A program made the position numbers and the translations under genes. Of a DNA stretch of 64,000 bases, positions 13,132 to 61,600 are shown in pieces (within the stretch, counting starts at the first letter, position 1; each line of letters starts with the position of its first letter). This stretch comes from Cyanidioschyzon merolae (Eukaryota). The notes beneath the pieces were generated by a model. It worked only from the letters and a program-made list of their open reading frames with translations. It was not told the origin of the DNA and did no database searches. Where the stretch lies: assembly GCA_000091205.1 (NCBI GenBank), contig AP006488.2. The stretch is one strand, 5' to 3'.

Positions 13132-13753
13132 GATTTGAATTCAAGGACGCCTACAATAGGAAACCAATAGAAAACGAAGCAGACACACAACAGACTCTTG
13201 GTCAAGTAAGTATGCAGCACCGTTGTACACGCTGCGGACCAGGTGCTTCAAAAGTTTGTCGCCTAAGCTGTCAGCTGCTCCCCGCGAGGCACGCAAGGTG
13301 TAGAGCGCACAGGCGGCGTGCTCGCGCATCGATCCGAAGCGGCGGCGGGTATCGGGCCAGTACGCCGCCAGCGCAACCGCCGGATCGCCAGCGCTGGCGA
13401 TCCGGCGACGCGTTCCAGGCGCGTCCGCTGCAGCAAATGGCGCCTCATCAAACGCTCGGTCTGATACGAGGGTGGTGTCGGTAGCTGGTCGACCACACCT
13501 ACGATACGATCCGAAGACAGGGGCGTTTATGGAGTGCTCGCTTGATCGAACGCTGGTGCTTTGAATGCGAGGCGCACGTGCTCCATGGAGCAACAGGATT
13601 CGTGGCAAGCGCAGGCATCGCCCGCAACGACCAGGTAAAAACTGCAATAGAGATGGAAGCAGCGGTTGCGGGCACGCGTACGCCGGACACGCACATAAAC
13701 GTATGATGAGGCATGCATGGAGGCTACAATGCGCGATCCACGCCAGCAACGGG

Positions 13754-13872
13754 GGCATCAGATCGCGATCCGGTGATGCGTGCACTGCACGGCCCCGGAC
13801 GGCATGCACATGCACGACCATTCGACACATGACGACAACCGGCATCAGATCGCGATCCGGTGATGCGTGCAC
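13754..13872. repeat. Two direct copies, 87 bp apart, of a 32-bp motif ggcatcagatcgcgatccggtgatgcgtgcac containing the palindrome gatcgcgatc. They lie in the intergenic region upstream of GCSH.
   Basis: Read directly at 13754-13785 and 13841-13872. Confidence 0.7.
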
Positions 13873-14051
13873 AGCATCATTGCACTGTGCGCCTTGCGAC
13901 GATTTACGTCGTAACAGCGGCAACGTCCGGCACGATCCATCGCATCGTGCACGGCAAGCGATGACGTCTTGCGAAACAAATCAACACCCAACGTTGTCGG
14001 TATCGCTCGGTACTGCCGAAACATGCTCGGTTGTCAGATCCTCAATCGCGT

Positions 14052-20020: not shown

Positions 20021-20082
20021 GGCTGGCGTGATCATTTCGTTCATGAGAAAAATCAACGGCGCGCTCGAGCGACTCTCCAGCC

Positions 20083-31009: not shown

Positions 31010-31476
31010 CTCGAATACAAGTAAAGAGAGATCGGGCGCAGAGCTGATCACCGAAGAGACCTGCACATACAAACAGGCGCATTTGAATACGTCTTTCATC
31101 GGTAGGTGCACGGTGCACTGTTCGGGAGCGCACACGCTGGAAGCAAGCTCGCTTCTCGAAGGCGTGTAGCGCGATCTCGGAATACCGCATATCGATACGC
31201 ATGTTTGCGTGGAGGAGGACGCGTGCGCGAACCCAGACGCCGAAGCGAACCTTGGGGTCTGTTCGCAGTGGCGGCGAAACTAGTCGTGGCGGGGAATGGT
31301 CTCCGACTGCTTCATGTTACGCTCACGTATCCCCTGCTTGTAGAACGCCGGTCTACTGTTTCTCTAGCCCTGTTGTCAGCAGTCGAAGATGACGGATGCT
31401 CGTGTTCATTCCCCTGCTTTCGCTGCATACAGCCGTTGTCGACGCATATGGTGCTCAGGCGGACGTTGCTATGTAC

Positions 31477-31784
31477 GCATCGCTTGCCATGTTCTTCGTG
31501 TTTGTATATAAGTCAGTGCGTTTGTTGCAGCGTTGACACCTGCATGTGGTCAGGTGTCGCTTGCCATGTTCTTCGTGTTTGTATATAAGTCAGTGCGTTT
31601 GTTGCAGCGTTGACACCTGCATGTGGTCAGGTGTCGCTTGCCATGTTCTTCGTGTTTGTATATAAGTCAGTGCGTTTGTTGCAGCGTTGACACCTGCATG
31701 TGGTCAGGTGTCGCTTGCCATGTTCTTCGTGTTTGTATATAAGTCAGTGCGTTTGTTGCAGCGGTGACACCTGCATGTGGTCAG
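31477..31784. repeat. Tandem array of four 77-bp units: gtgtcgcttgccatgttcttcgtgtttgtatataagtcagtgcgtttgttgcagcgttgacacctgcatgtggtcag. Each unit junction forms the hairpin gacacctg-catgtggt-caggtgtc (8-bp stem). Each unit contains TATATAAG.
   Basis: Read directly. Full units start at 31554, 31631 and 31708. The first unit (from 31477) is slightly diverged at its 5' end, and the last has one substitution. The array lies in the intergenic region 470 bp downstream of the clathrin stop. Confidence 0.85.
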
Positions 31785-33462
31785 GTGTCCAGCGTATGTC
31801 CATCGCGCCGCCACCGAGTCGTCAGAAACCCATATTGCAGGGAATCATTCCTTGCCGCAGCGCTCGGTACGTGCACTTGAGGCCTACAGAAGGCCTCCAT
31901 CGATGTCCTAGTCGGTTTCCGCGGCAGGTGCCGTTGCCAACGATCACCAGCTTGTTTTATTTCTAGACGGAACCCAGAGTGAGCACTCTGTCTGCTGCCC
32001 AGGCAAGCGCACGCTGGTTCTCTCAGTCGAGGATTTCTGAAACGCGATGTTGGCCATAACGAAGCAGGTACCGCAGGGGCGGGTATCCAAACCGGAGAGC
32101 AACTCGAGGTATTCGATCGGTGGACGCTCCCTTCTTGCACAGCTTCGACGCACGCTTCACGAAAAGCGATCGCTGCGATAACTCATGTCCGAGTCCAGGC
32201 TTCATTTTCGTGAAGACTCAAGAGATCCAAGCCTCCAGGCACGTAATCCGTGAGTAGTATGGCGCGGCTCCTGTGGAATCCAGTATCGTCGACGGCCAAA
32301 AGATAGGAGGATATGTATGTCTCGAACGGATTCCATTGTTTGATTTGTCAAGTTCAATGAACTTTGAGCATGAGCTTGTGAACAGTTCACAAAGAGAAGA
32401 CGTCCTCGCGTATTTTTCCTCGTTATTCGGGCGGCGCGAATTGCTGCGCTCACAAGTTGCCTTGAAAAATGGTAGATCGAAAACATGAAGCTCCCGTGGT
32501 CTGAGCAAACGACACCTGAACGGGACGCGGGCAGTGGGCTTCTTTCTAATCATTAAATCATGATAAGGGTTATTTTACGAGAGCGTATTGAAAGGCATCG
32601 CGAATCATTTTGATTCTGGTGTCGTCAAGAATTCTAGTAGCGAAACGTCGAAGATGCCACCCCAGAAAAGTACCAAGAAGCATCGTAAAACTACGTATGC
32701 GCGCGGAAGCCCTCGTTGCTGCGCATCGAATGTCGCAGCTGCACATGTGGCAAAAGAAACGCCCCGAGAAAAATCGAACTGCAGGAAGCATCAAGCATTT
32801 GAATGTTCCGTCTTCATCTGACACGGGTAGAGCCGGCGTCCTCTGTTCATGAATCAAGACCCAAATGCAAGGCGCGTACCTTCCGACACTTTCCGCTATG
32901 GTCTTGTTAGGCGCGACGGCGCACCTGATGGCATCGCTTTGGATACACGAAGCCCATGTTCTTTGGTTTGATGCTGGGAAGCCGCGGATGCCACCCATGC
33001 CTTACCCGTCGGGGCAAGAGCGGTGTCGCTGCTGTGCTCGTACGCGACGACGGAACGCAGTCCGAGTTCCACTGGTGCTCGACGTGTGCCTTGGGCATGT
33101 GCACAATGCACCGCGCATATGCTTGCTCTTTGTTTTTTTCGCATGATGCGGTCGTAGCAAACCGTAAGCACGTGCAAAGTTGCCGTGCAGGGCGCTCGGT
33201 ACCTGGAACCTCATTAGGCATCTTCGTGGCATTTTCAGGTCAATCATTATCACGTCAAAACATCGGTCGTTGCCGGGTCGCAGCACCGACGCTGAATATG
33301 TTAATGGTGCGAACACATCCATGCGTCAGCTCACGTCCACGCGCACGTTCCTCGACAGTTCCGTGCGAAGCCAGCTCGCCAGCGCGCACAGCCACAAACA
33401 AAGGCTTGCGCGCAGTCTCGATTCTTAAGAAGGCTAAACCAGATCCATTGCCCCAATTCCAT

Positions 33463-36628: not shown

Positions 36629-39600
36629 CATCTAACCTTTCGATTCGAAGATCATTCGGGTAATGCTGCGGCGGCGAACTCCCGGCATCATACCATTTTG
36701 TTAGGGATGCGACTGCTTGGTGCATACACTACTCTGTTTGAAAACGGAAAACAAGCTGTTGCCGAGTAAGGTCGCTGACGGACCATGACAAGGACGCCTT
36801 TGCATATCTGGGTATTTGTGACCCGTAAATTCTATGATTCGCCCTCTGTATATTCCGGAAAACTGAACAGTTGAACGCTCTCCTGGTTCACCATTTGTGC
36901 TGGAAAAATGCTCCCGGTTCATTCAAGCGACGTTATAAACTTTCCGGCCAGCTGACCGGCACCATAGCAATGCCGAGCTTCGTGCGAGACTCCAGTCTCC
37001 TGGCGACTTTTGTTTCCTACGGAAATGCCGAGGATTTCCGCACAAAACCCACTCGGAATACGAAACGTTGCCGCGGAGGTTTCGCTCCCTGCAAAGCCGC
37101 TGGGCGCTCTATGGGCACGAGACATTGCCGGATGTTGATCGAGGAGTAAAGGTGTCAGAGCGGAAACTGCTTGCAAGCATTTAACCTGGTGGAATCATTC
37201 TGTGGCAAACCCCTCACCTTGGATTGCCTCGGAATTTGATGTATCGCTCGGTTTACTGGACCGCTGTCTTGGTTCAGGATCCCCATGTTTATTCTTCTAC
37301 CCACGCGCTTCTTTGTTTTATCCAGGTTCCTCTTACTTGCCCAGCGATTCAAACCTCTGACGTCCCCAGAGCGAATCATATGCGGAGACGAAGTACGAGC
37401 GGCGAGGATGAAAACACGGAGCAGATAACGAGTTTGTGGATTGTGCTCAAGGAGAATGATGACATGACGTGCCGCTGTGTGTCACTTGCGCATCTGAGAA
37501 GTTCTCCACTTTTCCAGTGTCCTCGACACACTGGAAGGACACTAACCTGAGAGTGAGCAGAGCACATTGCCGCGGCCGAGTGCGATGCCATGCATAATCC
37601 TCTACGAGCGCTCTGTGTTCCGGCAACAGCAATGACACTCCGGGGTACTCCTTAACGACCCTAGTGCCTGAGTTTAGCGATGCGCGCAGCTTCTCGTCTG
37701 AGAAGACACCCAAGCGATGAGCTCCGTCCAGCAATGCTTTTCGTCCGAGAGTAGTAACGTTCTCTGGGAACGCTATACATCCTGCGTGCGGAACGCTCCA
37801 GGATATCTGTGAAGCTCTCACACCGCTGCTTCTTCGGCGTAATTGGTATGCACGGACACTGCATTTCCGTTGTGAACCATGTAATTCATATTTATTCTTC
37901 ATACATTTTTGACCTCTCTTCTCTATCGCTCTTCGGAAAATGCGATCTGCAAACCTGACCAAGTGTTGCAAACAAAGCGTTGAGCCCTGCAGCCCCGGTC
38001 GTTGAGCCCAAAGCATCGAGCACCAATCCACGTCGGGGACGGTACGCGTTATCGAATATGTATTTGCTGAACTGAGCCCTTGCTTCACGGCCTCGATGAC
38101 CCTATCAATAGGGTCTTAACCACAGAGAGCAATTTGTGGTGTCTAAGATAACCCATCCTCCGATCTCTGCTGTTTTCCAAAAAAGAGGATATGTGGAACA
38201 CGATGTTGTCCACCGTGCGACAAGCACCGAAACCAAATCCAGACTGGAGAACACGTTGGACCATTTCGATTGGTCTGCATTCCCATCGTGCAAAGCGATG
38301 ACACAATCTCCTCTGGGAAGCGATCGCTGCAACGACTGTAGTCTGAATCCATTGCCCATTTCCATGCAAGAACAAGAGCCGGGCGTCTCTGAAAGCATAT
38401 CCACTTATTGATATCGAGCTGCAGTCGAATGGCGTTCCGTCGATGTCTACAAAGAGAAAAGAAGTCGGCTTTCGAACAGATTGAATTTTCTGACGTTCCA
38501 AGTTTCAGAAGCTTTCTGCATGAGCCTGTGAACATGTCGTCCATTCTCGACGCCAATGGTTTTTCTTCGTTATTCCAGCAGCATGCATTGCTGCGCCCAG
38601 CGGATGTCTTAAGACACACCGATCAGAGACCTGAGGCATGCGTTATCTGAGCATGCTATACGGACGGAGCAGAGAAGCGTTGAGTCTCGTTCCAAAAACT
38701 TGGATAATGAAATCAAGTATTTTGCGAATCCTGAGTTCGAGGGCGTTGCGAATCATTCTGATACCGTTGACAAGACGCATTCCAGCGAGCGGCGTCGAAG
38801 GAGCCACTCCGAAACCCCGACCGAGAATACTCAAACTATTTATGCATTCGAAAGCCCGTATGGCTGCACTGCGAAGGCTGCAAGCGTAACTCTAAAAAAG
38901 CGCGAGCGACATATCGGAATGCACGATCAGAAGAACCAGTTTTGTTTTCCACGTTCATCTGATCGCTGTAGCATGGTGCAGACGGGTGCAGGCCTAGCGC
39001 ACCATCGACGGGATATCCTTGACGCTATGCTATGGGTGCCACTCGGGTACAACGCCTACGTTTCAAGCGAATCATTAAGAATCGCTCTTATTGGAAGCGC
39101 GTCCCCCATAAACGCATCGCTCGGCGCTGAATCGCAGATGAGCAGTCTGCGTACTAGCGAACGCAGGCTTTCTCGTGAAACTCATTGGTCAGCACTCACC
39201 TGCGGTTCAAAAAAGAACGGCGCAGCGCCGACACCGCAATCAAGTGCGCTTGACTCGTGCAGGAATAAACCACTTGGACCCTGCTATCGGTTGTATAAAG
39301 CGTGAAAGCTCGTATAGACGTCTTGCTCCCCGGCGTTGTTCAGAACAGCACGCTGCGCTGCTGGGCGCTTCCCTGGAACACGTGTCGACGCAGCCGAGGA
39401 GCGCCATCCTTGCTCTACGAAACATATTGACCAGCAGCGAAAATTGCGTGCCATGGCATACACTTGAAACTGCATTTCGCTCTATCGAAACTGCAGACAA
39501 ACCCTAGATAAGCCCGCTACCTATGCCTCGAGTCCAGCCTCTGAGCCAACGCCAAGGCCAACCACTGGGGTTATCCGTAAAGCGCCGCCCCGCCCCGCGC

Positions 39601-43118: not shown

Positions 43119-44021
43119 CTAGCGCCGGGCAGCCATTTGCATCCGGAACGCAAGCACCTGTTGCCGTTGATCCGGAGGCAGCGCTTGAATCTGCGCTGGG
43201 GTCAGCGACATTAACTGTTGAATCAGAGCCTCTTCAGTCGCAGCGCCTTGACCCGGAACGATGCCTCCAGGCAGCGGTGCAGCAGCGCCGGCTGCAGCAC
43301 CAGACTGCACCCTCTGCATCGCCGCCAGGCTCGCATTCGTAGTCACCGATGCCGTCATACTCTGCAGATATTGCTGTGCCTGTTGAGCGCTGAGCAGGCC
43401 CAGTAAAACCTGGGCTTGGAGAATCGCATGCGCTATCGGTGGATGCGCAGCCAACATCGCGCGTACTTCATTGGGATTCTGCTGGGCGATCGTCTTCAGT
43501 TCAGCGAGCACATCGAAGATCTGCTGGAGACTGAGACCCTGCAGAGATGGCTGTCCGCTTGGGAGCAAAAACGGTTGAACTACCTGTGCAGCCGTCACTG
43601 TCGGTCCAGTCGGCTGTGACGGTGCGGTAGCGTCCGCAAGAGCGTCGTAAGCGCCCCAGGATGCTGCTGAAGCTCCAGGACCCAGCCCAGGGCCCGATCG
43701 TCCGCCCTCGGGCGCTGCTCCTGCCCCCGGTGCAGTGGACCCGCCAGCACTTGCCTGATTCCGAGTCTGCGAACTCGGGGCGATCCGCAGCATTCGTCCT
43801 CCGAACTCTATGCGCTCATTGAGGTTCCGTACAGCACTCTCAGCTGTCTCAGGGTCGCGGTACTCACAGAAACCGTAGCCCTTCGGTTTGCCGGTCTCTT
43901 TGTCGTAAAGGATGCGTAGACTCACCACCGGACCTACTTGCTGCAAGCGTTCTAGCAGCATATCCTCCGTGACTCCATAGGGTATGTTTCCGATAAACAC
44001 AGTGCAGGAACCGCGACTCAT
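43119..44021 (-). CDS. CSTF2: Cleavage stimulation factor 64 kDa subunit (CstF-64 / Rna15-like): RRM, hinge domain and C-terminal domain. The track start at 44303 is TTG; the ATG is at 44021.
   Basis: RRM: CTVFIGNIPYGVTEDMLLERLQQVGPVVSLRILYDKETGKPKGYGFCEYRDPETAESAVRNLNERIEFGGRMLRI. Hinge: LQQIFDVLAELKTIAQQNPNEVRAMLAAHPPIAHAILQAQVLLGLL. C-terminal pentapeptide-like region and conserved CTD: LPPDQRQQVLAFRMQMAARR. Confidence 0.8.
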   Translation of the reverse strand: MSRGSCTVFIGNIPYGVTEDMLLERLQQVGPVVSLRILYDKETGKPKGYGFCEYRDPETAESAVRNLNERIEFGGRMLRIAPSSQTRNQASAGGSTAPGAGAAPEGGRSGPGLGPGASAASWGAYDALADATAPSQPTGPTVTAAQVVQPFLLPSGQPSLQGLSLQQIFDVLAELKTIAQQNPNEVRAMLAAHPPIAHAILQAQVLLGLLSAQQAQQYLQSMTASVTTNASLAAMQRVQSGAAAGAAAPLPGGIVPGQGAATEEALIQQLMSLTPAQIQALPPDQRQQVLAFRMQMAARR

Positions 44022-44504: not shown

Positions 44505-45790
44505 CCTGTGTGATCAGGAAAACGAACGACGTTTCACGACCACAGTGTAACTGTGTATATGTCCAATCACAGACGCCTCCCAGCCTTTTTTGATCGGTTG
44601 CATGCTATCGATTTCTCCTTCTCCTTATACACTTTGACCTTGAGAGGCGGCCCGACGACGTTGGATCGCGTCAGCTCCCCTGGTCTCGTCTTCAGAACTG
44701 CACATCTCCTAATATTGACAGCGGCACTGAAGTCTCCGTTCACGAACTCCATGCGTTAATCGCCGTTGGTGGAACTCGTTTTTTTCGAGCATTCCTGGGA
44801 CTCGTGCCTTCTGACCCATTTCCGGGTCTGTCAGCTCTCCGTGCTTTCGCATCGCCGAGGCGCTCCGCTCCTGTTCCTCCATCTCGATCTTCTAAAGCGT
44901 GCACCGCTGCCCATCTTTTGGACTCTTCATTTCTTCTAATGAACGCACTTGTTCGTATGCTTCGGTGAGGAACTTCCCAGATCGGAAAGGACTTGCACAA
45001 GAACGACGACATGTGCCCCGGTGTCAACGTGTGGTGAGCGCTTCAGCGACTCGCCCAGTGGAGCGAACACTGCGTTTCACGATACAAAACCCTCCCTCGA
45101 TGTGGATCAGCCACGGAGCGTACGCAGGAATCCAGAGCAGCTCTACTCCCAAAAGAAGAATTGGCAAAAGCCCGAACGCAAAGTGAAATGTCTTGAATGA
45201 TTCGACGAAATGGTTGGTGTTGATGGATAAGCCTTCTCTAGGAGCGAAACCGAGGTCGCCAAATGAAGCCACTGCAGCTAGAACAGATGACGATGTCGTC
45301 GTTCTCTTCGAGACTGATCGTCAATGCAACGGGCTCCCTGCTCCGCGAGTACCCATAGACACTCTGGGCGCTTCGTCCGAAGAAAGCCTCATCAACTGAA
45401 AAACAAACCAACCGATATTCCTGTGCTTTACACAGATCGTGACTTTCCAGGAACGCTGCAGTCGTTGGGAGTTCGGCGGAAGATGGCCGAGCGTGAACTA
45501 GGACTTTATTGCGACTGTGTCCCAGTGTTTTCAGGACCGCACGAGCCGGCTGTTGAGAATGAGTGTCGCCCCTGGTGGCTGTTATCATCGCTTCTGCCGT
45601 CCGCAAGTAGATCAAGGGGTCGTTTTCTACCAGTAACCGGCAGCAATTTTTGAGAACGTTGGTTATTTGCATAGAGCGCATATCCTGCTTTTTTCAGTGT
45701 TCCTCAGCCATCTGAGAACTCTGGTACGACTGGCGTTGAGGAGGAATGCAATCTTCCAAGCACGGCTCAGTAAAGAACATATCCTAAAGG
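44505..45790 (-). mobile_element. Copy A of a 1.24-1.28 kb deletion-derivative Fanzor/TnpB-like element (minus orientation), in the divergent CSTF2-RFC2 intergenic region
   Basis: The minus-strand ORF MEFVNGDFSAAVNIRRCAVLKTRPGELTRSNVVG is a RuvC-III-like tail homologous to MEFLNRDLNAAINIRRRAVIEQRPPQSTRAKSVG of the long copy. It is about 98% identical to copy B over its whole length. Sequence similarity to B stops at about 44527 and about 45780 on both sides, so these are independent insertions. Confidence 0.6.
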
Positions 45791-46199
45791 AGATTCTTCT
45801 ATGATCTTTATGGTGCGTTGAAACGTGATGCTTATCCCGAGCTCTACACAGCGAAGAAGCATTCCATTCCATGGCTCGGCAGGGGAAACAGAATTGAGTT
45901 GAAAGACTGGAAACAGTACTGGCGCGAAAAAACTGGCCATTTCAATCGATGTCCCACGGCGGGCTAGAACTGAGCAAACAAGCTATTATCCTCGTATTCA
46001 AGCCTGGCTTTTACGTGTTGGGTGCCCCGTTATCCGGAGCAAAGTGTTGCGTACTTCTTTAGCTGCGGATAACCGGCGTGCACCAAGGGATCTTCGGTTA
46101 GCTTCAACGAACCCAAACTAGCGAAAAAATCAGCACGAGGTTTGCTCATTGCGTTGCCATTCAACGAAGAGCTGCGCACTTTGATAAAAGCACTGTTAA

Positions 46200-47198
46200 A
46201 TGCTTGATCATCAACCATGGATTGAGAAATACAGACCACGGACGCTCTCTGAAGTCGTCGGCAACCAACCAGTTGTCGAACGACTGCGAGCACTGGCTCT
46301 TAGCGGGAACGTGCCGCACTTGCTGCTCGTTGGTCCACCGGGCGTCGGCAAGACGACCGTAGCGCTTGCTTTGGCGCGGGATACTCTGGGCGATGCGCTC
46401 ATCCAGCAAGCAGTTTTAGAATTGAACGCATCAGATGAACGAGGTATTGACGTGGTGCGAAACAAGATCAAAATGTTTTGCCAACAGCACGTGACCTTGC
46501 CGCCGGGACGACATAAGCTCATCATTCTCGACGAAGCGGACTCGATGACGCCCGCAGCACAGCAAGCTCTACGCCGTATCATGGAACTCTACTCAAGTAC
46601 CACACGATTCGCGCTTGCCGCAAACGTCTCCAGCAAAATCATCGAACCAATACAGAGTCGTTGTGCTGTCATTCGGTTTCGTCGTCTTGGCGATGAAGCG
46701 GTGCGCAGTCGCCTTGTCAGCGTTCTGGAAGAAGAGCACGTTCCGTACGAGCCGGACGGAATCGAGACCATTGTCTTCACGGCCGATGGTGATATGAGGC
46801 AGGCCCTGAACAACGCCCAAGCGACGTGGTTTGGTTTCGGAGTCATTACAACGGAGCATGTGCTGCGTGTATGTGACTCACCGTCGCCAGCACGGCTGCG
46901 TCGATTTCTCGAATTATGTGAGACACAGAAATTTGAGCAAGCAGTTGGCGAGATTGAGGCGATCTGGCGTAGTGGGTACGCAGCGTCGGACCTAGTTGCC
47001 ACGCTGTTTCGGGTGGCTCGAACTCAGGCCATGATCACCGAAGGTGGAGAGCGTGGGCGAGACCTGCGGCTCGAGTTCCTGCGTGAGATCGGTCTAACGC
47101 ATATGCGGATCACGGACGGCTTATCAAGTCTGCTGCAACTCACTGCATTGGCATCGAAGCTGGTCCGTTGTGCTGAACGTATCCACACAGCCCAATAA
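46200..47198 (+). CDS. RFC2: Replication factor C small subunit (human RFC2 / yeast Rfc4 type), AAA+ clamp-loader ATPase
   Basis: ATG start. WIEKYRPRTLSEVVGNQPVVERL, Walker A LLVGPPGVGKTT, ELNASDERGIDVVRNKIKMFCQQHVTLPPGRHKLIILDEADSMT (DEAD box), SRC motif IEPIQSRCAVIRF. This is a near block-for-block match to human RFC2 as recalled. Confidence 0.9.
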   Translation: MLDHQPWIEKYRPRTLSEVVGNQPVVERLRALALSGNVPHLLLVGPPGVGKTTVALALARDTLGDALIQQAVLELNASDERGIDVVRNKIKMFCQQHVTLPPGRHKLIILDEADSMTPAAQQALRRIMELYSSTTRFALAANVSSKIIEPIQSRCAVIRFRRLGDEAVRSRLVSVLEEEHVPYEPDGIETIVFTADGDMRQALNNAQATWFGFGVITTEHVLRVCDSPSPARLRRFLELCETQKFEQAVGEIEAIWRSGYAASDLVATLFRVARTQAMITEGGERGRDLRLEFLREIGLTHMRITDGLSSLLQLTALASKLVRCAERIHTAQ

Positions 47199-48167
47199 GT
47201 TGGAACTGAGCGTGTGCGTTGGTCTCCGAACCAGGGCGAGAACTTGCTTCGGCGGTTGCAACATGCTCTGCGGGACTGGGCTCTAGCGAAACAAGCGGGT
47301 GCGTTCCAGTGGGAAGATGTTATTCAAGCCTGGTCCAGCATGGCTGCCGCACCACAACTAGCAACTTTGTATCTGTTTTGATTTATCCGTGTTCGTGTGT
47401 GGATCGCTCAGTGAAGCAGCATGGGCGTTCTGCCGGCATATCCAGCGTGATGTTGGGGGCGCTGCTATCTTTGGGTGACGATTTCACCATGCGCGTTAGA
47501 ACACGAGCTGGGTATTCGAATGCAGTCTGGTACAGGAGTCGAGCTCGGGCGTATGCATGACCTTCAGTCGACACATGCTTTTGAGCTTTATCGAAGGCAT
47601 GGTTCAGCTGCAAAGGCGACACGGGGCAGAATGTATTTGCGTTCGTGAGGCATACCCACCCGCGGGCTCGATGGCGTCGATGCTCGGGAGAAGCATCCGC
47701 CTCACGTACGTCCCGATTTGGCGCCCTGCAGTCGTCAAGAACTCATGGGTAGCTCGAGTGCCAGGGAGAAGCATCCGCCTTGGGAGGAAACGCTTCGAAG
47801 ACCCTTGAATCGTCAGAAAATGGCTGGTAGCTCGACATAGACAGCGGCTTCTTGCGTACATGGCCTTTCTACATTCGTCGCTGTGCAGAGTATCGGAAGC
47901 TTCAGGCTTCAGCGCGTCACACCATGCGACTAGACGCCGCCTCAACCCAATCATCTAAATACCAGTGCGCTTTGTGGATGCGACAGCGCCAAATAACATA
48001 TCCATACACAACGACTGCGCGCGCTCGCATCAGTGCAGCCTTGCACGGTCAGTGCGAACCTGACGCTGTATGCCCCATTGCCTCTACAGAGGCGCTCATC
48101 GAGGCTCTCTGAGCTCATTCACCAGGATGCACCATCTTTCGGATCATATGCGAAAAATTGAGCCGAA

Positions 48168-48881
48168 TCAGGTAAAACCTGCAGTGGCACCTCGCCCACG
48201 TAGCTTGAAAAACCACAAGAGTACCGCAATGATGACCAAAATCACCATCATAGGCCCGTACTGTCGAATCCGTAGCATCCAACGAGCATGTTTCGCTCGA
48301 CGGAGGTACTTGCGCGACTCTGCTGATAGCATGGCGCTGGTATTCTGCAGTGATTCGAGACGTTCGCCCCGTCCAAGCACTTCCTGAATACTCCTCGTCA
48401 TGATGTCGCGCACATCCAAAAGCTCTGAGTTGAGGCGTTCCAGGTTTCGGACAGCACTGGCGTCCAAGTACACTTTCTTCGTCTTTTGGATGAAGCTGTC
48501 GAAGCGAATCATCTCATAGGGTCGGTTCGCCAGTGCCACCTGGGCTCCATAAACTGCTTCAAACTCCCGTCGAAGTTCGTCGAGAAACGCGAACGCCAAC
48601 TTTCGCGGATAAGCTTTTTCGCTCAGCGTCAAGAAAGCCACCTGGTCACCAAGCAAATAGTGAAACGTGAAGGCGCCCGATTCGATGCTGGCGGCTTTCC
48701 GAGAAGCCGGAACGCTGCCGCGTCCGCCAGCCAAGTACTCGGCAGTGAGACCCTTGAGGATCCGTTTCGCCTGTCGCTCGTACTCTTGAAGCTCTAGCGC
48801 GAACGCGTCCTTTTCGTCGGCCAGGGAAGCTGCGAGCGGCAGTCCATCCGTCAATCGCGAGATGAACGTTATCTTTGGCAT
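48168..48881 (-). CDS. SEC22: R-SNARE Sec22 (longin domain, SNARE motif and C-terminal TM). The track start at 48944 is TTG; the ATG is at 48881.
   Basis: The longin-type N-terminus begins MPKITFISRLTDGLPLAASL. The SNARE motif reads NLERLNSELLDVRDIMTRSIQEVLGRGERLESLQNTSAMLSAESRKYLRRAK (R-layer Arg present), followed by the TM segment MMVILVIIAVLLWFF. Confidence 0.85.
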   Translation of the reverse strand: MPKITFISRLTDGLPLAASLADEKDAFALELQEYERQAKRILKGLTAEYLAGGRGSVPASRKAASIESGAFTFHYLLGDQVAFLTLSEKAYPRKLAFAFLDELRREFEAVYGAQVALANRPYEMIRFDSFIQKTKKVYLDASAVRNLERLNSELLDVRDIMTRSIQEVLGRGERLESLQNTSAMLSAESRKYLRRAKHARWMLRIRQYGPMMVILVIIAVLLWFFKLRGRGATAGFT

Positions 48882-49779
48882 CAAAACCTGTTGCGAAGCG
48901 TCACTAGATGTGGTTGTTCGGAGAGCGGGCCACAGCGATGCCAACGATACATCGGAAAGTGCTGGATTGCCCAGCGGACCCTAGTGCGATGCCTAGCGCT
49001 GCGGCTGACTCTGAACCGAGTACCGTTCGCGAATGGAAGCGATGAGCCTAAGTCTTCGGTCGCTACGGAACGAGTTCTGGAATCTTACACAGTTCTCGCA
49101 AGATTTCGTGTCACAGGATGGAATACAGAGCGGAAGCACACATGGAACGCGCTCTCAGGGACTGGGGCGTAGTGTCTGCGTCACCAGCCTCGATTCTCGA
49201 ACACTACATCGGTAACGTCTCTAGTCTCAATAAAGAGGATCGTCCGGTACAGGCTGCGCTTTATTACGGTCTTTGTGCCTCGTTCGCATGCATATTCGGG
49301 GACAATACGGAGGCTGAGTAGAAGACATGCCTGTTTCGATCGAAGGGAGATCGCGACGTAGGTATTCTCGCGATGGTGACAAGCATCCCTGGCCAGCTTT
49401 TACCTGTGTCATGGTGAAAATCGAGGCAAGCAAACGATTCGCAACGAGTACGCAATATGCAAGTGTAGCAACGCTGCATAGAACAGGGCATGCAAAGAGG
49501 TTGCATCTCATGGCGAGAAGCTTGGCGGTGAAGCGCGCATTCCAATGCACTCGAGAAGCGAGTTTTCCCAGTACACGTATTTCAAGATCATAGCGTTACG
49601 GTCTTTTGAGTTTCAAAGCTTTGAATATGGTTGGGAAGCAGACCTGAGGATGAGTAGCGCTGCAGAGGTAACGCGATACCGGCCTTTGTTAACGTCTTTC
49701 AACTCAAATTTTGTTCGGCCCCGGTTTGGTGAATAGCAGGAGATCGAAATGACCAAGCAATGTACCCTATAGATCGAGG

Positions 49780-51060
49780 ACGAATTGCCCGTACGGTATA
49801 CAATCTTTACTGAACAGTGCATGGAAGATTGCATTCCTCCTCAACGCCAGTCGTACCAGAGCTCTCAGATGGCTGAGGAACACTGAAAAAAGCAGGATAT
49901 GCGCTCTATGCAAATAACCAACGTTCTCAAAAATTGCTTCCGGTTACTGGTAGAAAACGACCCCTTGATCTACTTGCGGGCGGCAGAAGCGATGATAACA
50001 GCCACCAGGGGCGACACTCATTCTCAACAGCCGGCTCGTGCGGTCCTGTAAACACTGGGACACAGTCGCAATAAAGTCCTAGTTCACGCTCGGCCATCTT
50101 CCGCCGAACTCCCAACGACTGCAGCGTTCCTGGAGAGTCACGATCTGTGTAAAGCACAGGAATATCGGTTGGTTTGTTTTTCAGTTGATGAGGCTTTCTT
50201 CGGACGAAGCGCTCAGAGTGTCTATGGGTACTTGCGGAGCAGGGAGCCCGTTGCATTGACGATCAGTCTCGAAGAGAACGACGACATCGTCATCTGTTCT
50301 AGCTGCAGTGGATTCACTTGGCGACCTCGGTTTCGCTCCTAGAGAAGGCTTATCCATCAACACCAACCATTTCGTCGAATCATTCAAGACATTTCACTTT
50401 GCGTTCGGGCTTTTGCCTATTCTTTTTTTGGGAGTAGAGCTGCTCTTGATTCCTGCGTACGCTCCGTGGCTGATCCACATCGAGGGAGGGTTTTGTATCG
50501 TGAAACGCAGTGTTCGCTCCACTGGGCGAGTCGCTGAAGCGCTCACCACACGTTGACACCGGGGCACATGTCGTCGTTCTTGTGCAAGTCCTTTCCGATC
50601 TGGGAAGTTCCTCACCGAAGCATACGAACAAGTGCGTTCATTAGAAGAAATGAAGAGTCCAAAAGATGGGCAGCGGTGCACACTTTAGAAGATCGAGATG
50701 GAGGAACAGGAGCGGAGCGCCTCGGCGATGCGAAAGCACGGAGAGCTGACAGACCCGGAAATGGGTCAGAATGCACGAGTCCCAGGAATGCTCGAAAAAA
50801 ACGAGTTCCACCAACGGCGATTAACGCATGGAGATCGTGAGCGGAGACTTCAGTGCCGCTATCAATATCAGGAGATGTGCAGTTCTGAAGACGAGACCAG
50901 AGGAGCTGACGCGATCCAACGTCGTCGGGCCGCCTCTCAAGGTCAAAGTGTATAAGGAGAAGGAGAAATCGATAGCATGCAACCGATCAAAAAAGGCTGG
51001 GAGGCGTCTGTGATTGGGTATATAGACTCTCTATGGTCATGAATCGTTTAACTAATCAAT
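49780..51060 (+). mobile_element. Copy B of the 1.24-1.28 kb Fanzor/TnpB-like derivative element (plus orientation), upstream of SEC22. Together with copy A it forms an inverted pair about 4 kb apart.
   Basis: The plus-strand tail MEIVSGDFSAAINIRRCAVLKTRPEELTRSNVVG is RuvC-III-like. The upstream frames carry NARKKR and IRTSAFIRR segments homologous to the long copy's ICKKR and FRTSYTHH. A weak RuvC-I-like GLSINTNHF lies at about 50340. About 98% identical to copy A. Confidence 0.6.
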
Positions 51061-53765
51061 GATCGAATATCACGAATGCTTTTGTGTAGTCTATGCTAGT
51101 TTCAGATTATACTGGAACACTGAATCACGCACTCTGTTCCTGCCTTGCGAATGTTTGAGAGCATATTTAAAGATAAAGCCTCGAGATTCGAAGTTGAACA
51201 GAAAGGCTTCGCGGATGCATGCGTGGTAGTAGAATTCCCGGGCGTCTTCTCGGAAAGGCAACTGTCAACTTCTGCCTCTGGAATCCGTTACAGTACCATA
51301 ATCAGGATATTTCGAGGCATTCTCGAACAAGAGTTCTTCAAGTATGCCATGTCATTATCCAGCCCATTCATGCAAGCCCCCAGGCGGCTCCTTTCCTGAC
51401 ATGTTGCATCGCTCAAATGAAGCAGTCTTCAATGTTTCGCTCTTTCTGCTTCAAGGCAGCTCGTGTCCGCAGTGATTCGCATCTCTGGACGGTTACGGAA
51501 AAATCTTGAATTGGTCCCTTGATAACTTATCCGCAAGCTCATGCCAAATATTCTCTGAGCTTCTAACTTCAAAAAACGAATTCCATTCCAAAGATAGTTC
51601 CTGATCTTCTTGTGCGCATCAACGATACAGCGTCGGACTGCACCGAGATCCATTCTCAGGATATACTCTCAAAGCCTCCTGTCTCTTCTGTATGCGTGGA
51701 ATTGGGTCTTGCGCTTGGGCTTTAGTCATCGCAGCGATCATGTGTAGTGGAAATAGCGTCACCGCAGTGAATGCAGGAGGCGCAGAAGTATCAAAAGGTG
51801 CTGGCATTTTCTGCGCCATGGCAGTTTCCGTCCGATACTTGTTCCATCGTGGACAACATCGTTTGCCAAGAATCCTATATACAAATCGGAATACCGTGCC
51901 CACGCATGTGCAGCGGACAGAGAACGTACCAATGGGATCGTCCGATGAATCCTGTGATCTTAGGGTACAGCACGGATTACGGAAACTGAGAAGAGCATGC
52001 GGGAGTGCTTTCCCCATCCGTCATGGATACGTACCTAGCGATGTAACAAGCTTTTGCGCGCGACAAGGCACCTCTCGGAGAACAAGGTAAGGTGGATGTA
52101 TGCTAATAACTCAGTACAATCAAGTGCCACCGGTGCGTAGAACGCACCAAGGATGTATACTAGGACGGGAATCGGCAAGCGGACCTTAGAACGCAACTTG
52201 TTCGAGAGCATGGAACTCGTCGACGAGTGCTGGAAGCTACAAAATGGGGACTCGGACGCTTTTAGCAACATACTTCGACTGCCGAATATGGAGCCGGAGG
52301 AAAATGAGAGACTCGAGCTTTTAACGCCAGAAATAAACGAGCAAACTTGAGATCAATCGCAGAAAACGCACGTAAGGTCCAGTTTTGATGAAAATAGGAA
52401 GAGTCCAAAACTTTAGAGTGCACGCCCGGGTCACTGAACCCGTTCATCTTTCATCCACCCTGGTTGTAGGAATGATTTTATGAACCAGGAGTCCCACAAG
52501 GGTGCTCCTAATCGATACTCAGAGAAGTGCCCTCTACACTGCTCTGCTCCGACGCCCCGGCGCTCCATTTGCCACAGACCGGACTTGTCTTTGGGGCAGG
52601 GGCATGAAAAACCAAGGAGCACCTCGTATGAAGCATTGATCCTCTGGCAGCGACACAGTGAACGATGCAGTCTGCGAGTCGACGTCCGCAGAATTATGCA
52701 TGAAGATGTAGCCGTCTCTAAGTGCGCCCCATCAGAGCCTTGAAGTCTTAAGTCCGTGAGTAAGCGTCCGCAAGGATGTGTCCTAAGTTACTGTGAAATT
52801 TCCGTATAATAGAGCTGTTGTTTTCGGCACTCCAAGAGTCAGGAAATCGATCAGAGCTCTTTTCCTGAGGAGAATGCTGCCGAGCTGGAGCTACTGGGAT
52901 ATAAAGGCGTTTCCGGAGGAGCCAGTACCTCTTGTTCTAATAAACGGCAGCAGTTGCATATCCTGCAGGTTCTCGTTAGATACACCGATGGTGCCTCAAT
53001 TTAAATAGGAATCTGCACCTGCACGCGAAACGCTGTGTTGTCCAGTAGCTCGGCTGCAGCGAGCTTCCTGGGGCGGCACAGGGCAGCTTGTAGACGAGTT
53101 TACACAAATTGCGATGCCGTAGACGCTCGCCTCGTTCGACTCCAGTCCTGACTGCAGGCAGTAACGAGCGCTTGCATCGGTGCCGATAAGAAGCACAGAC
53201 CTTTACGTTTCGACCGCTGATGCATTGTGGATTCGACTCGAGCCAACGACCAACTGAGCAGGCGACGTCTTGAGAAACAAGCAAACGGCACACTGGTCAT
53301 GTAATGAAAAGCAAGTTGCGAGCATTTCTCGTCGGGCTCCGGACGTGGCGAGAGCAGGTCTCAACGCGAAAGCCAACGTCCAAGTGGCGCAGCCGAAGCT
53401 TGGTATTCGACTCTGCTTCATCGAACCAAACTGAGGTATATACTTTTAAAAAAAAAGTAATGTGACTGTCATTGCAACAAACAGTCCCTTTAAGGATCAA
53501 TACAGGTAGCAAAGCCGTAAGGTCAGGCTCCTGCCATCGAATGCCCACCAGAACGATTGTATCGCAAGGTCATCCTTCGCTGCAAAAGGTACAGTGCGCA
53601 GTAGTGGTGCCGCTCTCCTCGTATGCATTTTACCAATAGATTCGTCAGACGCTTATTTCCTGATGTGAACGGCAGGCACGACAACCGCTTAACGGACCTT
53701 GGACGCCGACAGGCACAAAACCTGTTCTCGTAGAGCTCCAAATCTACACAAACATACAAAAGCAT

Positions 53766-54398
53766 TCACACTAGCGCCGGACTTTTCGCTCCGCTTTCGT
53801 TTGTTTTGTTGAGCGTCCCTTGCTTTGTATCGACTAGCTCGATGGTTTCGCGCTCGGTGCCATCGCCATCGTTGCTGATCGAGTGGCTTCGTGAACTCGA
53901 CTGCCGTGTTGCGGCTGCTTTCGCTTCAGCGGTGTACGCCCGTCGCCTCTGGAGTTTGTCCCAGCCAAGCCTTACGCAGTTCACCGCAGAGAAGAAGCAC
54001 CAGATTCCCTCGTAGACAACAAAAGGCCAATAGAAAATCATAGCTGCTGCAGCTGTCGCTAACGCTCCGCCCAGAAAGTTCGCAAATGAATAAAGAATCG
54101 AATCCGGCCAGCGCTCCAGTCGCCATACTCGAAACAGGTTCAACAAGAATGCTAGTAGCATCAGTGCGACGCCTACTGCGCCTATCGCCGTGGAAGCGGG
54201 ACTCTCCGTACTGAACATTTCACTGAAAAGCGAAACATAAAACCTTGAATAGATTCTGAACGCAAACAGAACCAACCCCAAGACTCTTTGCGTTGCAAGG
54301 CGACTTGGAAATCTAGTTTGTATCAAGAAATGAGTCCCAAGGCCAAAGCTTGTAAAGCACGCGGGCAGTGTTCCGCGTTCACGACTCCAAATTTGCAC
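53766..54398 (-). CDS. Hypothetical multi-pass membrane protein of unknown family. The track start is GTG; the first ATG is at 54218.
   Basis: Hydrophobic segments (ALMLLAFLLNLF, ALATAAAAMIFYWPFVVYEGIWCFF). No recognisable family motifs. Confidence 0.25.
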   Translation of the reverse strand: MQIWSRERGTLPACFTSFGLGTHFLIQTRFPSRLATQRVLGLVLFAFRIYSRFYVSLFSEMFSTESPASTAIGAVGVALMLLAFLLNLFRVWRLERWPDSILYSFANFLGGALATAAAAMIFYWPFVVYEGIWCFFSAVNCVRLGWDKLQRRRAYTAEAKAAATRQSSSRSHSISNDGDGTERETIELVDTKQGTLNKTNESGAKSPALV

Positions 54399-55499: not shown

Positions 55500-56070
55500 G
55501 TTGAGTTCCGCCTCCAGGTGCATACCATCAAGTGCTGTCTCGCGGTACATAGCAGATGTGCTCGATGTGCAGTCGTTTCCACAAATCAAGTATCCGACGT
55601 AAAGTATGGACATGGTAGTCAAGGATCCTGGCGGGCCGTCATCTCCAGGTGTTTGAAAAAACGAAAATTCCCCTTCTCGCCAAACATCGAACGAAGAAGA
55701 GCAAGTGGCGAAGAAAAGGAATGAGCAGATAGACCAGAAAAAGTGTTTGCCCGACGGGCTGATGACTGTACTCTAGTGGCACAGAGGGCATGAGTTCTAG
55801 TAATTCGTACCAATGTGCTTTCAGCCAGTGTCAAGAAACGCAAGGTGTTGGTGAAGTGAAACCTCAGCGCCGCCATCAATATCAGAAAATGTGTGGTGCT
55901 GAAGACGAGACACGAAGAGCTGACGCGATCCAACTTCACGGAGCAGCCTCTAATACTCGAAATATACACGGAAAAGCTGAGGCCTATTGCGGGGAGGCGG
56001 TCAACATAAGGCTGCGAAGTGTCTGTGAGTTGGCGTATACGCATATATACGCTATGGTCGCGAAAAGTTT
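55500..56070 (+). mobile_element. Copy C: a shorter, more diverged copy of the same element family (3' portion only), ending about 480 bp upstream of the kinase gene start. Left boundary uncertain.
   Basis: The plus-frame tail SAAINIRKCVVLKTRHEELTRSNFTEQPL is preceded by an in-frame stop. KRKFPFSPNIERRRASGEEK aligns with copy B KSFPIWEVPHRSIRTSAFIRRNEESK. The 3' terminus ...gtctgtgagttggcgtatacgcatatatacgctatggtc matches the B terminus ...gtctgtgattgggtatatagactctctatggtc. Confidence 0.45.
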
Positions 56071-58641: not shown

Positions 58642-61600
58642 ACTGCGTTTCACGCAGCACTTGGATTTTATGGAGGTCGTCACCAGCGCGTACCCCATGA
58701 CATTGTAAACTGTACCCTAAATGTCGAGTGACCGCGAATTGCCTCCCCATGCAATCCGGAGCATAGATAACCTCTGTGCTTCGACCATTCCACTCTAAAA
58801 TTCCGAAAACTAGTTTGCACTTGATCACTGGATTCGCTGTGGTGCACATGCTGCGTTGTGTCATTCGAGTCGTCTTGTGCAACGACGGTGAGGTTTGCTC
58901 CAAACCCGTCTCAGATTGCAATGGGTTTCCGAACCGCTCGATCTGTTCATGACCAGCGCTTTTTCTCGAACTTTTTCTCAGAAGTAAGTTCCCGACATTG
59001 GAAGTGCAGCGAGAATTGCGTATGCATTCATACGTAGGTTACGGTTTTTCGGTCATCTTTTGCAGTGGCTCCTTCGATGCTGTGCCGCTGAAATCCGTTA
59101 CGTTACCGCCACCAAAATGAGTTAGGATGTCCTCAAACTAGGGTTCTTAAACTAATTGATTCCATTGTCCAGTTTATTCGTCCGAGCGTCCACATTTATC
59201 CATATCTTACGAGTGGGATGCTCAAATCGCCCATTCTTGAACTTGTCGATCTGTCTGTTTCAAAGCAACTCGCGATCACAGTCATTCGCGCCACTGGATT
59301 GACGACGATTAAAACTCGACGTGAGCCTTGATGACTTGTTTACAAGCTCGTGCTATACGTTCACTGACCGTGTCGCGCCAAAGAAACGATTCCGTTTGAA
59401 AAACGAATCCGCTCTTCTTTGTCGCCATCAACGAAACAGCATTCAACAGCAGTGAGATACCGCTCACGGCATATGCTCCAAGCGGGTCAAGTCTCCTCAG
59501 GTTTGCGTGGGAAAGGGTCGTTGACCTGTACTTGAGTCATCGCAGCGATTGCTTCCAGTGCAGCGTGCGTGACCGTTTTACACGAAAGAAGCGTAGATCG
59601 GTAGAGATGTTTTGGTTGCTCCTGTAATCTGGATTCTCAGTAAGGTACTTGTTTCGTTATGGACATCATCGCGCCCAAAAATCCTCTGTCAAATGGAACA
59701 GCATGCAAGTGCGTCGGACAAAGCTCTCGCGGATGGCATCACCCAGAGCAAACCCGTTGTCACAGGATAAGGCACCGGACATGGCAACGGAGGAAGGCAT
59801 CGAGGCGAGCCTTCTGTACATGTCAAGTCCATGAACCGAGCGATGAAGCAGGCGTTCACGCACCACAGAACTGACTTCGGAGAAAAAGATGTAGTGGCCG
59901 CACGGGAATACCCGACTATAGTGAATCGTGATCGTTGTGAAAAACGCACAGAGGCTCCATACATCTAAGAAGAAAGTTGAAAACGATGCGTAGATCGCAA
60001 CGTTTGCCCTTGAATGAAAAGCGTGAACCAGAACCTGAAAAAGCATCATCAGAACTTTGACGCTACCATCAACATCTTGCGACTGCTTACAATCAAGAGT
60101 GACAAACAGTATAGATAGCTGTTTTTAAACCCGGATATAATACGCAGCAGAATGAAGCAGTTGCAGAAACTGCCCGCCAAGGCTCGTGTTGATGCTGATG
60201 TGAAGAGACCCCAACGTTCGCATCTGCGCTCGACTAAGCTGAGTTTACCTGTTCCATACTAATCTGACATGGGTGTTAAATCTGTGCGGCAAGGCGTACA
60301 TTGACAGCTACAGACGCACTTGGCTAGTGTCCGCATGTGGGACAACGCCCGTATTTCGAGCATGCCTACGCAGGATAAAACCCCGAGGGCACCCAACGAG
60401 GTCGGGCGTGCATCCACCAGCATAGCAAGCGATACCGCTCTCGCTGCTTCGCTCTTCGGCTAGCCCAGGTTCCTGGTGTTGAGTCACGTACCGTGCGAAA
60501 GCCGCGCGCGAGCAGTTCACTTTTTTTCACGTATACGCAGTCATATCGAGTGATGGAAAATCATTTTTTCTATAATTGCCCAGGAAATACGTTCTTGGTT
60601 TATGCATTCGGCGCTCGAGCCGCACCATTCCAGAGCCTTGCTCCAGGTGAGAACGCATGCCTCAGTGTTGGCGAGGAAAATCGAAAGCGCTCATCCAACG
60701 CTCGCTGTGAATTTATTCGAAAGCCTCGTGCTCGCTCGCCGAGACCAGGCCAAACAGAATAGCTTATAAACACAGAATCGTCTAGGGGATATCATGCACT
60801 TTGAAGCGATATATGACAACCACATTGAAGAGGCGCTTGAGGAAGCATTGGGGCTCGCATTCGCGAAGGAAATCTGCTTCGCGCTCGAGCGCTGTATTCA
60901 AGACCGCATGTTATCCCAAGATGCAATGAAGTCAGTTATCGTGTTTCGCAAATTCTTCGGATACCACATCCATCCGTCCGAGGCCGAGATGCACACGACA
61001 AACATCGACCATCTGAAACGGTTCTCGGGAACTTTGCAGCGTCTCTTCCGAACCTGCTGCCACCGCGATCTCCTCAGTCACTATTTCGTCGTTTGTCTCC
61101 ATCGACGCCCATGTATCGCTTCCGCCAGTCCCCCAGGTCTGGGGTTACCAGGGTTCGGGTCCAACGCCAAAAGGGTGCGCCTCATGTAGCGCTCAAAATT
61201 AACCTACGTACGCTAGGGCTTATTGAGGTTGGTTTGATCCTATCGGGAGCTGTGCTCTGGATCTTCCGATCGCTGAAGTAACAGGGGGCGCATCAAGAGA
61301 CTCCATGAAGGCCGTGTTCAAGTCTCTGAACCTGCGATCAGGCCGCGCTCCATCTTGTGTCCCGAGCGTGCCTTCAATTGTCAAACGAAGGTTCGATCGA
61401 AACCCTTCCAGAGGATTATGGACAACTAGCAGCGCTGCGTCCGGAGCTCCTACAAGCAGTTGCTTGGCAAGGTACGTCAACCGGAGAGCAGCTGGGCGTG
61501 GCTTGCTTGAGAAAGAAGCTATGCAATCTGGGACGGCGTGTTGCATCTCACGTTGTTTGGAATATTCTTCCTATTGACATGTTTTCGTAGGGATGCTTCA

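Follow-up and report, generated by a model that had tools for sequence, protein, structure and literature searches.

A micro-inversion of RFC2 and SEC22 in Cyanidioschyzon merolae, most likely mediated by an inverted pair of transposase-Fanzor1 relics

Non-allelic homologous recombination between repeats is a known cause of inversions, as documented for Ty elements in yeast, insertion sequences (IS) in bacteria and inverted segmental duplications in humans. Concerted evolution of repeat arms is equally well known from Y-chromosome palindromes and plastid inverted repeats. Here we describe a locus within a 64-kb window (the whole stretch of DNA that was analysed, to which all coordinates refer) of chromosome 6 of C. 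merolae 10D, in which two inverted and nearly identical copies, A and B, of a dead transposon derivative flank the genes RFC2 and SEC22. The 4-kb RFC2-SEC22 block was most likely flipped in 10D by recombination between these arms. As in the Ty, IS and human cases, each breakpoint carries a repeat, the swap of the outer flanks falls within the repeat, the inner genes are intact and the arms show concerted evolution. Unlike in those cases, the rearrangement is very small (4 kb between arms of 1.2 kb, in a streamlined genome of 16.5 Mb) and the arms are relics of a Fanzor1-carrying element. High arm identity despite age and decay at the arm boundaries are shared with Y palindromes and plastid inverted repeats; unlike these, the locus gives no evidence of equimolar flip-flop isomers in a single cell line, and the finished 10D sequence shows a single orientation.

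Transposons of the Mariner/Tc1 type that carry Fanzor1 are known elsewhere, for example PUl-1 and PGv-1; PUl-1 measures 3620 bp, has an inverted repeat of 24 nt and duplicates TA (PMC3627910). In C. merolae, CMe-1A was listed with its class as unknown and without terminal inverted repeats (Bao & Jurka 2013, PMC3627910). The CMe-1A/Fanzor1 family is thus known, as is the carriage of Fanzor1 by mariner-type elements of other organisms; inversion mediated by repeats and the concerted evolution of arms are textbook matters. Three things are new: a micro-inversion on chromosome 6, which is likely polymorphic; arms made up of a transposase pseudogene and a Fanzor tail; and the link between CMe-1 and a DDE_3 transposase. 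The locus changes no concept. It is a well-documented and nearly base-resolved instance of known processes, in which a pair of transposon relics has reshaped gene order in one of the smallest genomes of a free-living eukaryote.

A repeat search returned a single large inverted pair in the whole window, with arms of 1224 nt that are 98% complementary and separated by a spacer of 4027 nt (Table 1). Ungapped comparison of A with the reverse complement of B gave 25 mismatches (15 transitions and 10 transversions) and no indels over these 1224 nt, i.e. 97.96% identity, in agreement with the original prediction of an inverted pair with roughly 98% identity around RFC2 and SEC22. The 5' ends of both copies point inward, in the head-to-head arrangement previously described: the 3' end of A is turned toward CSTF2 and its 5' end toward RFC2, while the 5' end of B is turned toward SEC22 and its 3' end toward the right flank. 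Only the outer bounds first assigned to the pair, 44505 and 51060, proved about 13 to 24 nt too wide.

The corresponding loci of outgroups were reached via SEC22 homologues in a sister lineage (L014-L016, 86% protein identity) and in Cyanidiococcus yangmingshanensis (L017, GCA_013995675.1). Both exhibit the order TRM6(+) CSTF2(-) SEC22(+) RFC2(-) CBU_0592-like(-) kinase(+), compared with TRM6(+) CSTF2(-) [A] RFC2(+) SEC22(-) [B] ... CBU_0592-like(-) kinase(+) in 10D. Telomere-to-telomere gene tables of Cyanidiococcus NIES-4659 and Cyanidium caldarium NIES-551 also list CSTF2-SEC22-RFC2 (PMC13353863 supplement). Since three outgroup lineages, namely the sister lineage, Cyanidiococcus (two strains) and Cyanidium, share this ancestral order, the 10D arrangement is derived. 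A and B occupy both breakpoints of the inversion, which supports the earlier view of the arms as a substrate for inversion. A recent (2026) strain comparison reported only an inversion and translocation involving chromosomes 3 and 19 (PMC13353863), and the micro-inversion on chromosome 6 is not visible in whole-genome dot plots.

Comparison with a sister species had been proposed as a way to find empty sites. Spacer length and protein-level searches revealed no transposase or Fanzor relic at the outgroup loci, where the CSTF2-SEC22 spacers measure 1083 and 259 nt while the unit would need about 2.3 kb. Because the outgroup loci carry no relic and their spacers are too short, the copies were probably gained within the C. 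merolae lineage. Outgroup coding DNA is only about 73-75% identical and intergenic DNA is too divergent to align, a point that weighs against our interpretation, as absence of the element rests on spacer length and protein searches. A transposase-like match in the CSTF2-SEC22 spacer of the sister lineage (E=0.04) was not confirmed by the family hidden Markov model (HMM) and was discarded.

RFC2 and SEC22 keep the same syntenic position in all lineages examined. The flipped block contains both genes, intact, together with their upstream regions of 350 nt and about 800 nt, so that no gene is disrupted. The flip changes nothing except which of the two is next to CSTF2 and which adjoins the right flank. 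The arms had been called composite-transposon-like, and it is extremely improbable that they form a functional module, either a composite transposon moving RFC2 and SEC22 or a regulated invertible switch. Geometry alone, i.e. inverted arms with their 3' ends outward, speaks for such a module. Against it, both transposases are disrupted, terminal inverted repeats and a target-site duplication are missing, both genes keep their own upstream regions within the block and have not been moved, no site-specific recombinase is encoded, and a second RFC2-SEC22 block was absent from all searches made.

Contigs 98.5-99% identical to 10D, all from short-read metagenome assemblies, displayed both orientations. 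Nine (L001, L002, L003, L005, L019 and L022-L025) are of the ancestral type, in which the SEC22-side spacer leads into one full repeat and this repeat into the CSTF2 flank; L006 is a tenth according to its end single-nucleotide polymorphisms (SNPs), and L002 also begins with 235 nt of repeat adjoining RFC2. Joins of the 10D type were found four times (L004, L007/L013, L011 and L012). In the matrix of variable sites, the 5' edge from the SEC22 side is joined to the 3' edge from the CSTF2 side in each of the ancestral-type contigs, and the unique DNA is otherwise unchanged. The outer flanks are thus swapped within the repeat, a pattern consistent with an exchange point inside it, the inner edges staying with the segment and the outer edges with the flanks. 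One Joint Genome Institute (JGI) project, across different samples, yielded 9-10 ancestral-type contigs against one of the 10D type (L004), whereas other projects yielded 0:3 (binomial p about 0.01 versus a 50:50 path choice by the assembler). This project-wise pattern argues against a random assembler path, although a systematic path choice could still account for it. We infer that both orientations coexist in nature.

An inversion that is real with respect to other species but fixed in C. merolae, with the ancestral-type contigs being assembler path errors, is possible, yet we regard it as rather doubtful. The repeat core is perhaps identical over hundreds of nt in those strains, contigs regularly break inside the RFC2-side copy, and L005 starts with 122 nt of unrelated sequence that matched nothing and is probably a chimeric contig end. 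Several facts indeed weigh against a reading of these contigs as natural isomers produced by arm recombination. A near-identical repeat of 1.2 kb can be traversed by either path in short-read assembly, and L004, from the same project, takes the opposite path. The crossover itself is not visible, as the internal SNP pattern is mosaic without a single exchange point. Divergence between strains, about 1-1.5%, is similar to that between A and B, and many of the supposedly diagnostic sites are 10D-specific mutations. The 25 sites that distinguish A from B therefore did not yield one crossover point, the mosaic pattern being confounded by strain-specific mutations. Assembler error nevertheless sits poorly with the fact that 9-10 of 11 contigs of the project, from separate samples, are ancestral while those of other projects are all of the 10D type. 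Moreover, recombination between the arms would have to pass through precisely such an intermediate, with both repeats present and the block still in ancestral orientation.

Each arm consists of two parts. Its 5' ~870 nt are an IS630/Tc1-mariner (DDE_3) transposase pseudogene, and only the last ~350 nt derive from Fanzor1, on the same strand. The label 'Fanzor-derived' given earlier to the arms therefore fits just the 3' ~27% of the unit, whereas the duplicated 5' open reading frames (ORFs) belong to a frameshifted DDE_3 pseudogene. The 147-aa ORF of A (45238-45681) contains the motif FSVDEAFFGR, including the first catalytic Asp. An exhaustive HMMER search (phmmer) with this ORF, run against 1.84 billion cluster representatives that together cover about 15 billion proteins, retrieved 65 homologues, with whole-library E values of 4e-6 to 7e-4 for proteins of ~300 aa. 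These full-length homologues match Pfam DDE_3 (E = 1e-22 to 1e-26) and have an N-terminal helix-turn-helix (HTH) of the HTH_33/Tc3-like type; with the protein P0294, BLASTP gave E=1e-14 and an alignment that crosses the FSVDExxFGR motif. A word-indexed protein search had returned the orthologous cluster only, suggesting that the 5' part was unique host DNA, an idea overturned by the 65 homologues of the exhaustive search. Pfam produced no match on the ORFs of A, B and a long family copy (16933-20023), and it also missed intact family proteins. Likewise, nothing significant turned up elsewhere in the window when the 5' 860 nt were used as query in blastn, tblastx and nhmmer, the relics located there being detectable only at the protein level.

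The transposase part is disrupted in both arms. In B, it starts with ATG MYPIDRGRIARTVYNLY (MYPIDRGR...), meets a stop after 17 codons, and further contains frameshifts and an extra nonsense codon at 50049. No intact D-D-E triad in an open frame exists in A or B, the LLDNxxFHH region with the second catalytic Asp being degenerate or deleted. A and B showed no terminal inverted repeats, as their best end-to-end inverted matches were no better than those of shuffled sequences. Nor did their flanks contain direct repeats of at least 5 nt that would point to a target-site duplication.

The tails of A and B matched intact metagenome family proteins with tblastn values of 1e-18 to 1e-19 and HMM values of ~1e-10. 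Homology covers the last ~115 of ~700 Fanzor1 codons (HMM positions 576-619 of 622). The RuvC-III-like peptides announced for both arms are present upon translation, GDFSAAINIRRCAV in B (50843-50884, +) and GDFSAAVNIRRCAV in A (44696-44737, -), with the common pattern (S/N)GDFSAA(I/V)NIRRC. Because the family profile matches the solved Fanzor1 structures 9cf0 (1.3e-11), 8gkh (3e-9) and 9cer (0.02), the assignment to Fanzor1 is sound. Of the catalytic set of Fanzor1, namely the RuvC-I Asp (GxDPG), the RuvC-II Glu (VDEFRT) and the RuvC-III Asp (NRDxNAAxNI), only the RuvC-III region is left. The RuvC-I region is deleted in both arms, and with it the Asp whose loss had been noted; the peptide LTEAYEQ, in a different frame, is a possible but uncertain RuvC-II remnant. 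Upstream of the tail, no Fanzor homology was detected in A or B by tblastn, the family HMM or window alignments. The tail is thus a relic and not a gene, and the arms are, as originally stated, transposon-derived, non-coding and non-autonomous. As to a structured guide RNA (omega/fRNA) at the 3' end, thermodynamic folding of the 3' 248 nt was no better than that of shuffles on either strand (z = 0.12 and -0.06), and Rfam and tRNA scans of the region found no match.

Loss of the zinc-finger cysteines, in contrast, had been attributed to A and B but characterizes the whole C. merolae family, which has no CxxC pairs (...VDEFRTSYTHHELGCTL...) even in intact ORFs. The published CMe-1 protein likewise has no CxxC zinc-finger pairs (PMC3627910 supplement). 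More generally, proteins of the C. merolae-type Fanzor1 family (P0038, P0041 and P0093) have no CxxC...CxxC between RuvC-II and RuvC-III (VDEFRTSYTHHELGCTLQRVEMEK...), and intact family ORFs of 700-750 aa persist without these cysteines. The only Pfam name for this family is DUF8286 (PF26935).

In intact relatives, which measure 3.64 kb, a 300-aa DDE_3 ORF immediately precedes a 699-aa Fanzor1 of the same orientation. The repeat unit is an internal-deletion relic of such a transposase+Fanzor1 transposon, related to Repbase CMe-1A. Its parent would thus resemble PUl-1 and PGv-1, in which the transposase ORF is followed by the Fanzor1 ORF on the same strand; unlike these, A and B are dead, with ~85% of the Fanzor ORF deleted, the transposase frameshifted and the inverted repeats unrecognisable. 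Contigs L028-L031 from other metagenomes (e.g. L029:734-4379) contain an apparently active 3.64-kb transposon, whose copies at different sites are 98-99.9% identical. This element has an imperfect terminal inverted repeat of ~30 nt (TATACTC...GGAACACC) and TA-compatible ends.

Adjacency of transposase and Fanzor1 is also found in a relic of the window at 62834-61223 (-) and partially at 3773-6957. The long copy at 16933-20023 is a transposase-less form that matches the CMe-1A consensus at 79%. Collinearity of A and B with this long copy at 18-20 kb, as had been assumed, holds for their last ~260-350 nt but not for the remainder. The A/B tail is 74% identical to the 3' region of CMe-1A over 188 nt and collinear with it up to ...GGCTGGGAGGCGTCTG, while the 5' 980 nt of the CMe-1A consensus have no match in A or B. 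A and B are relatives of the CMe-1A family rather than members. They share with CMe-1A (PMC3627910; Repbase) the host, the Fanzor1 lineage and the want of terminal inverted repeats or a recognisable target-site duplication. They differ in that the first ~2.8 kb of the 3169-bp consensus are gone (5' ~900 nt plus about 600 Fanzor1 codons), in the last ~35 nt, and in the presence of a transposase pseudogene that the consensus lacks.

A degenerate ORF, P0306, reads from a transposase relic through into CMe-1A positions 44-357, and on the ancestral element the start of the published CMe-1A consensus falls near the point where the transposase ORF ends. Since P0306 joins a transposase relic to the start of CMe-1A, a single ancestral transposase+Fanzor1 element is suggested, of which CMe-1A would be the transposase-less and A/B the Fanzor-less derivative. 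A consensus starting near the transposase end may explain why CMe-1A was left with neither class nor terminal inverted repeats. The origin of the CMe-1 family of C. merolae appears to lie in a Tc1/mariner-type element that itself encoded a DDE_3 transposase.

Identity between A and B falls to background within ~20 nt beyond either end of the core. The flanks had been regarded as unrelated, and nothing is indeed detectable far out, but low-identity homology extends over 75 nt on the 5' side and ~22 nt on the 3' side. Beyond the 5' core end (A 45777-45849), 44 of 75 positions are identical to B (z=4.5 versus random window pairs); at the 3' edge, the ~22 nt align with an indel and ~16 of 20-24 positions are identical (z=4.0, p=0.0004). 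A 22-nt motif located ~110-130 nt upstream of the core (45887-45907 in A) is also shared, and no A/B homology was detected further out. The 5' edge corresponds to the first 15 transposase codons, with the reading frame continuous across the core boundary, and the 3' edge to the family terminus, as its motif CTATGGTCATGAATCGT in B recurs in an independent relic that ends at 56070. The finished 10D sequence thus combines element edges of ~60-70% identity with a core of 98% identity.

The original prediction had interpreted A and B as two insertions of the same deletion derivative and not as a duplication, an interpretation that these edges do not favour. Two recent independent insertions of one non-autonomous derivative mobilised in trans, with an incidental inversion, are in our opinion unlikely. 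The same internal deletion in both copies, their ungapped alignment over 1224 nt, a 3' end that coincides with the family terminus and the existence of active relatives with 98-99.9% identical copies in other organisms are what such insertions would leave. Recent insertion should also produce uniform similarity, however, and the element's own ends are only ~60-70% identical. Furthermore, the searches brought up neither a sibling nor a source copy: in the protein library, the next best match to the 147-aa ORF has 58% protein identity, the word-indexed search hit orthologues only, and a scan of metagenome DNA with a 22-mer from the 5' part hit three contigs, all orthologous (two loci only). Nor is there an intact transposase, a terminal inverted repeat or a target-site duplication in either copy. 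Because the edges are ~60-70% and the core 98% identical, and because no other copy in the protein library exceeds 58% protein identity, old copies homogenised by gene conversion are the better fit, and gene conversion could also have spread the deletion from one arm to the other.

Differences between strains point in the same direction. Between L012 and L011, the two arms from one metagenome project, 5 of 1197 core positions are different, compared with 16-20 differences between orthologous arms of different strains. Likewise, B of 10D shows 9 differences from the A copy of another strain, to which A of 10D shows 22. Such a relation of paralogues to orthologues is as concerted evolution predicts. 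Two points tell against homogenisation: collapsed short-read assembly of the arms could inflate the similarity of paralogues, and the identity step is very sharp, not the gradient expected from long-term conversion with variable tract ends. The step may reflect one or a few recent events. In a wild haplotype (L001:1-250), the RFC2-side copy has a ~130-nt deletion (window 45567-45695) and is 93-94% identical to 10D, showing that the arms are not equally conserved in all strains.

The edges also bear on whether the inverted repeat was born with the inversion, by staggered breaks and fill-in or by replication template switching, from what were never two insertions. The arms lie exactly at the breakpoints and the searches found no close copy of the unit outside the two sites, as this origin would have it, but we consider it very improbable. 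The unit spans a whole element, from the transposase 5' region to the transposon 3' terminus, and not arbitrary DNA; a single duplication does not predict edges far more diverged than the core; and ancestral-type contigs have the repeat on both sides (L002: 235 nt by RFC2 and a full copy by SEC22). The ancestral orientation with both arms is an intermediate required by arm recombination, and would therefore be unexpected if the inversion itself had made the repeat.

We thus consider it probable that old, dead transposase+Fanzor1 relics acted as a passive inverted repeat, subject to gene conversion and to a crossover that flipped RFC2-SEC22. Each copy consists of a frameshifted transposase of ~870 nt fused, via an internal deletion of ~2-2.6 kb with its junction at about 50590-50680 in B, to the last ~115 Fanzor1 codons and the 3' end. 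Lying 4 kb apart in opposite orientation, two such dead copies would offer host homologous recombination an inverted homology of 1.2 kb, with no mobile-element activity in either copy. Repeated non-crossover exchange would hold the 1.2-kb core at 98%, whereas family-level divergence would have built up in the outermost ~75-130 nt on the 5' side and ~22 nt on the 3' side. At least once, an exchange would have been resolved as a crossover inside the core, flipping the 4-kb RFC2-SEC22 block. C. merolae has efficient homologous recombination, which is the standard route for gene targeting in this laboratory model.

A more far-reaching version of arm recombination, in which RFC2-SEC22 is a cassette that flips recurrently in natural populations, even within one hot spring (L004 versus the nine to ten other contigs of its project), and in which a highly recombination-proficient nucleus continually exchanges between the arms and thereby keeps them identical, is no better than speculative. 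In its boldest form, the exchanges may be started by breaks that an active Fanzor1 nuclease of the family still makes at the conserved 3' ends. Dead Fanzor-family elements still shape genome structure as recombination substrates, and short-read assemblies may be misled by 1.2-kb inverted repeats around housekeeping genes.

Table 1. Coordinates of the repeat units, their parts and the surrounding genes in the 64-kb window.
Feature	Position	Strand	Basis
Copy A, full homologous unit	44529-45907	-	gapped blastn of A vs B reaches 44529; edge and motif homology
Copy A, homogenised core (probable)	44553-45776	-	98% identical to core of B
Copy B, full homologous unit	49694-51047	+	edge and motif homology
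Copy B, homogenised core (probable)	49804-51027	+	98% identical to core of A
DDE_3 transposase pseudogene, copy A	44952-45820	-	tblastn (queries: DDE_3 transposases of ~300 aa, degenerate ORFs of the family)
DDE_3 transposase pseudogene, copy B	49760-50628	+	tblastn; same strand as Fanzor tail
Fanzor1 C-terminal relic, copy A (last ~115 codons)	44564-44903	-	tblastn with intact family proteins; family HMM E=9e-11
Fanzor1 C-terminal relic, copy B	50677-51019	+	tblastn; family HMM; ORF stop codon ends at 51013
Unique segment between arms	45908-49693		no internal repeat; inverted in 10D vs outgroups
RFC2 (CMF110C, BAM79482), intact, 332 aa	46200-47198	+	Pfam Rep_fac_C, AAA; exact 10D protein match
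SEC22 (CMF111C, BAM79483), intact	48168-48881/48944	-	Pfam Longin, Synaptobrevin; P0118 100% identical
CSTF2-like gene (CMF108C), left anchor outside inversion	43119-44021	-	Pfam RRM_1, CSTF2_hinge, CSTF_C
CBU_0592-like small conserved ORF (probably CMX034C), right anchor outside inversion	53766-54398	-	outgroup synteny

The SEC22 ORF encodes 258 aa counted from a TTG and 237 aa from an ATG. RFC2 and SEC22 had both been called essential, which is an assumption; SEC22 is dispensable in budding yeast. The left anchor CSTF2 shares its strand and its neighbour TRM6 with the outgroups, and the right anchor ORF has a nucleotide match of 79-80% to the outgroup gene carrying PF26604. Exact protein matches further identified TRM6 (CMF107C/BAM79480) and CaMKK (BAM79484) in the window. 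The locus tags CMF108C (CSTF2), CMF110C (RFC2), CMF111C (SEC22) and CMX034C were taken from published gene tables (PMC13353863 supplement). CMF109C, in the CSTF2-RFC2 gap, and CMF112C/CMF113C, in the SEC22-kinase gap, are skipped in the numbering, and ORFs within transposon relics may have been called there in earlier annotations.

The window as a whole is unusually rich in transposase+Fanzor1 relics. Besides A and B, at least seven family relics were found, at 3773-6957, 16933-20023, 37047-37262, 51273-51738, 55528-56070, 59083-59549 and 62834-61223. Two more old repeats, at 10590-11059 and 32029-32483, pair with 59.2-60.3 kb. Directly downstream of the clathrin heavy chain ORF (25829-31009), a tandem array of 4-5 copies of a 77-nt unit occupies 31403-31787, its last three copies being 99-100% identical. 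Finally, a 94-nt tRNA-Cys(GCA) call at 13339-13432 has within it a perfect palindrome of 30 nt (13378-13407), a hint of an intron or of an unusually structured tRNA gene, and a 36-nt direct repeat (13754-13789 and 13841-13876) lies nearby.

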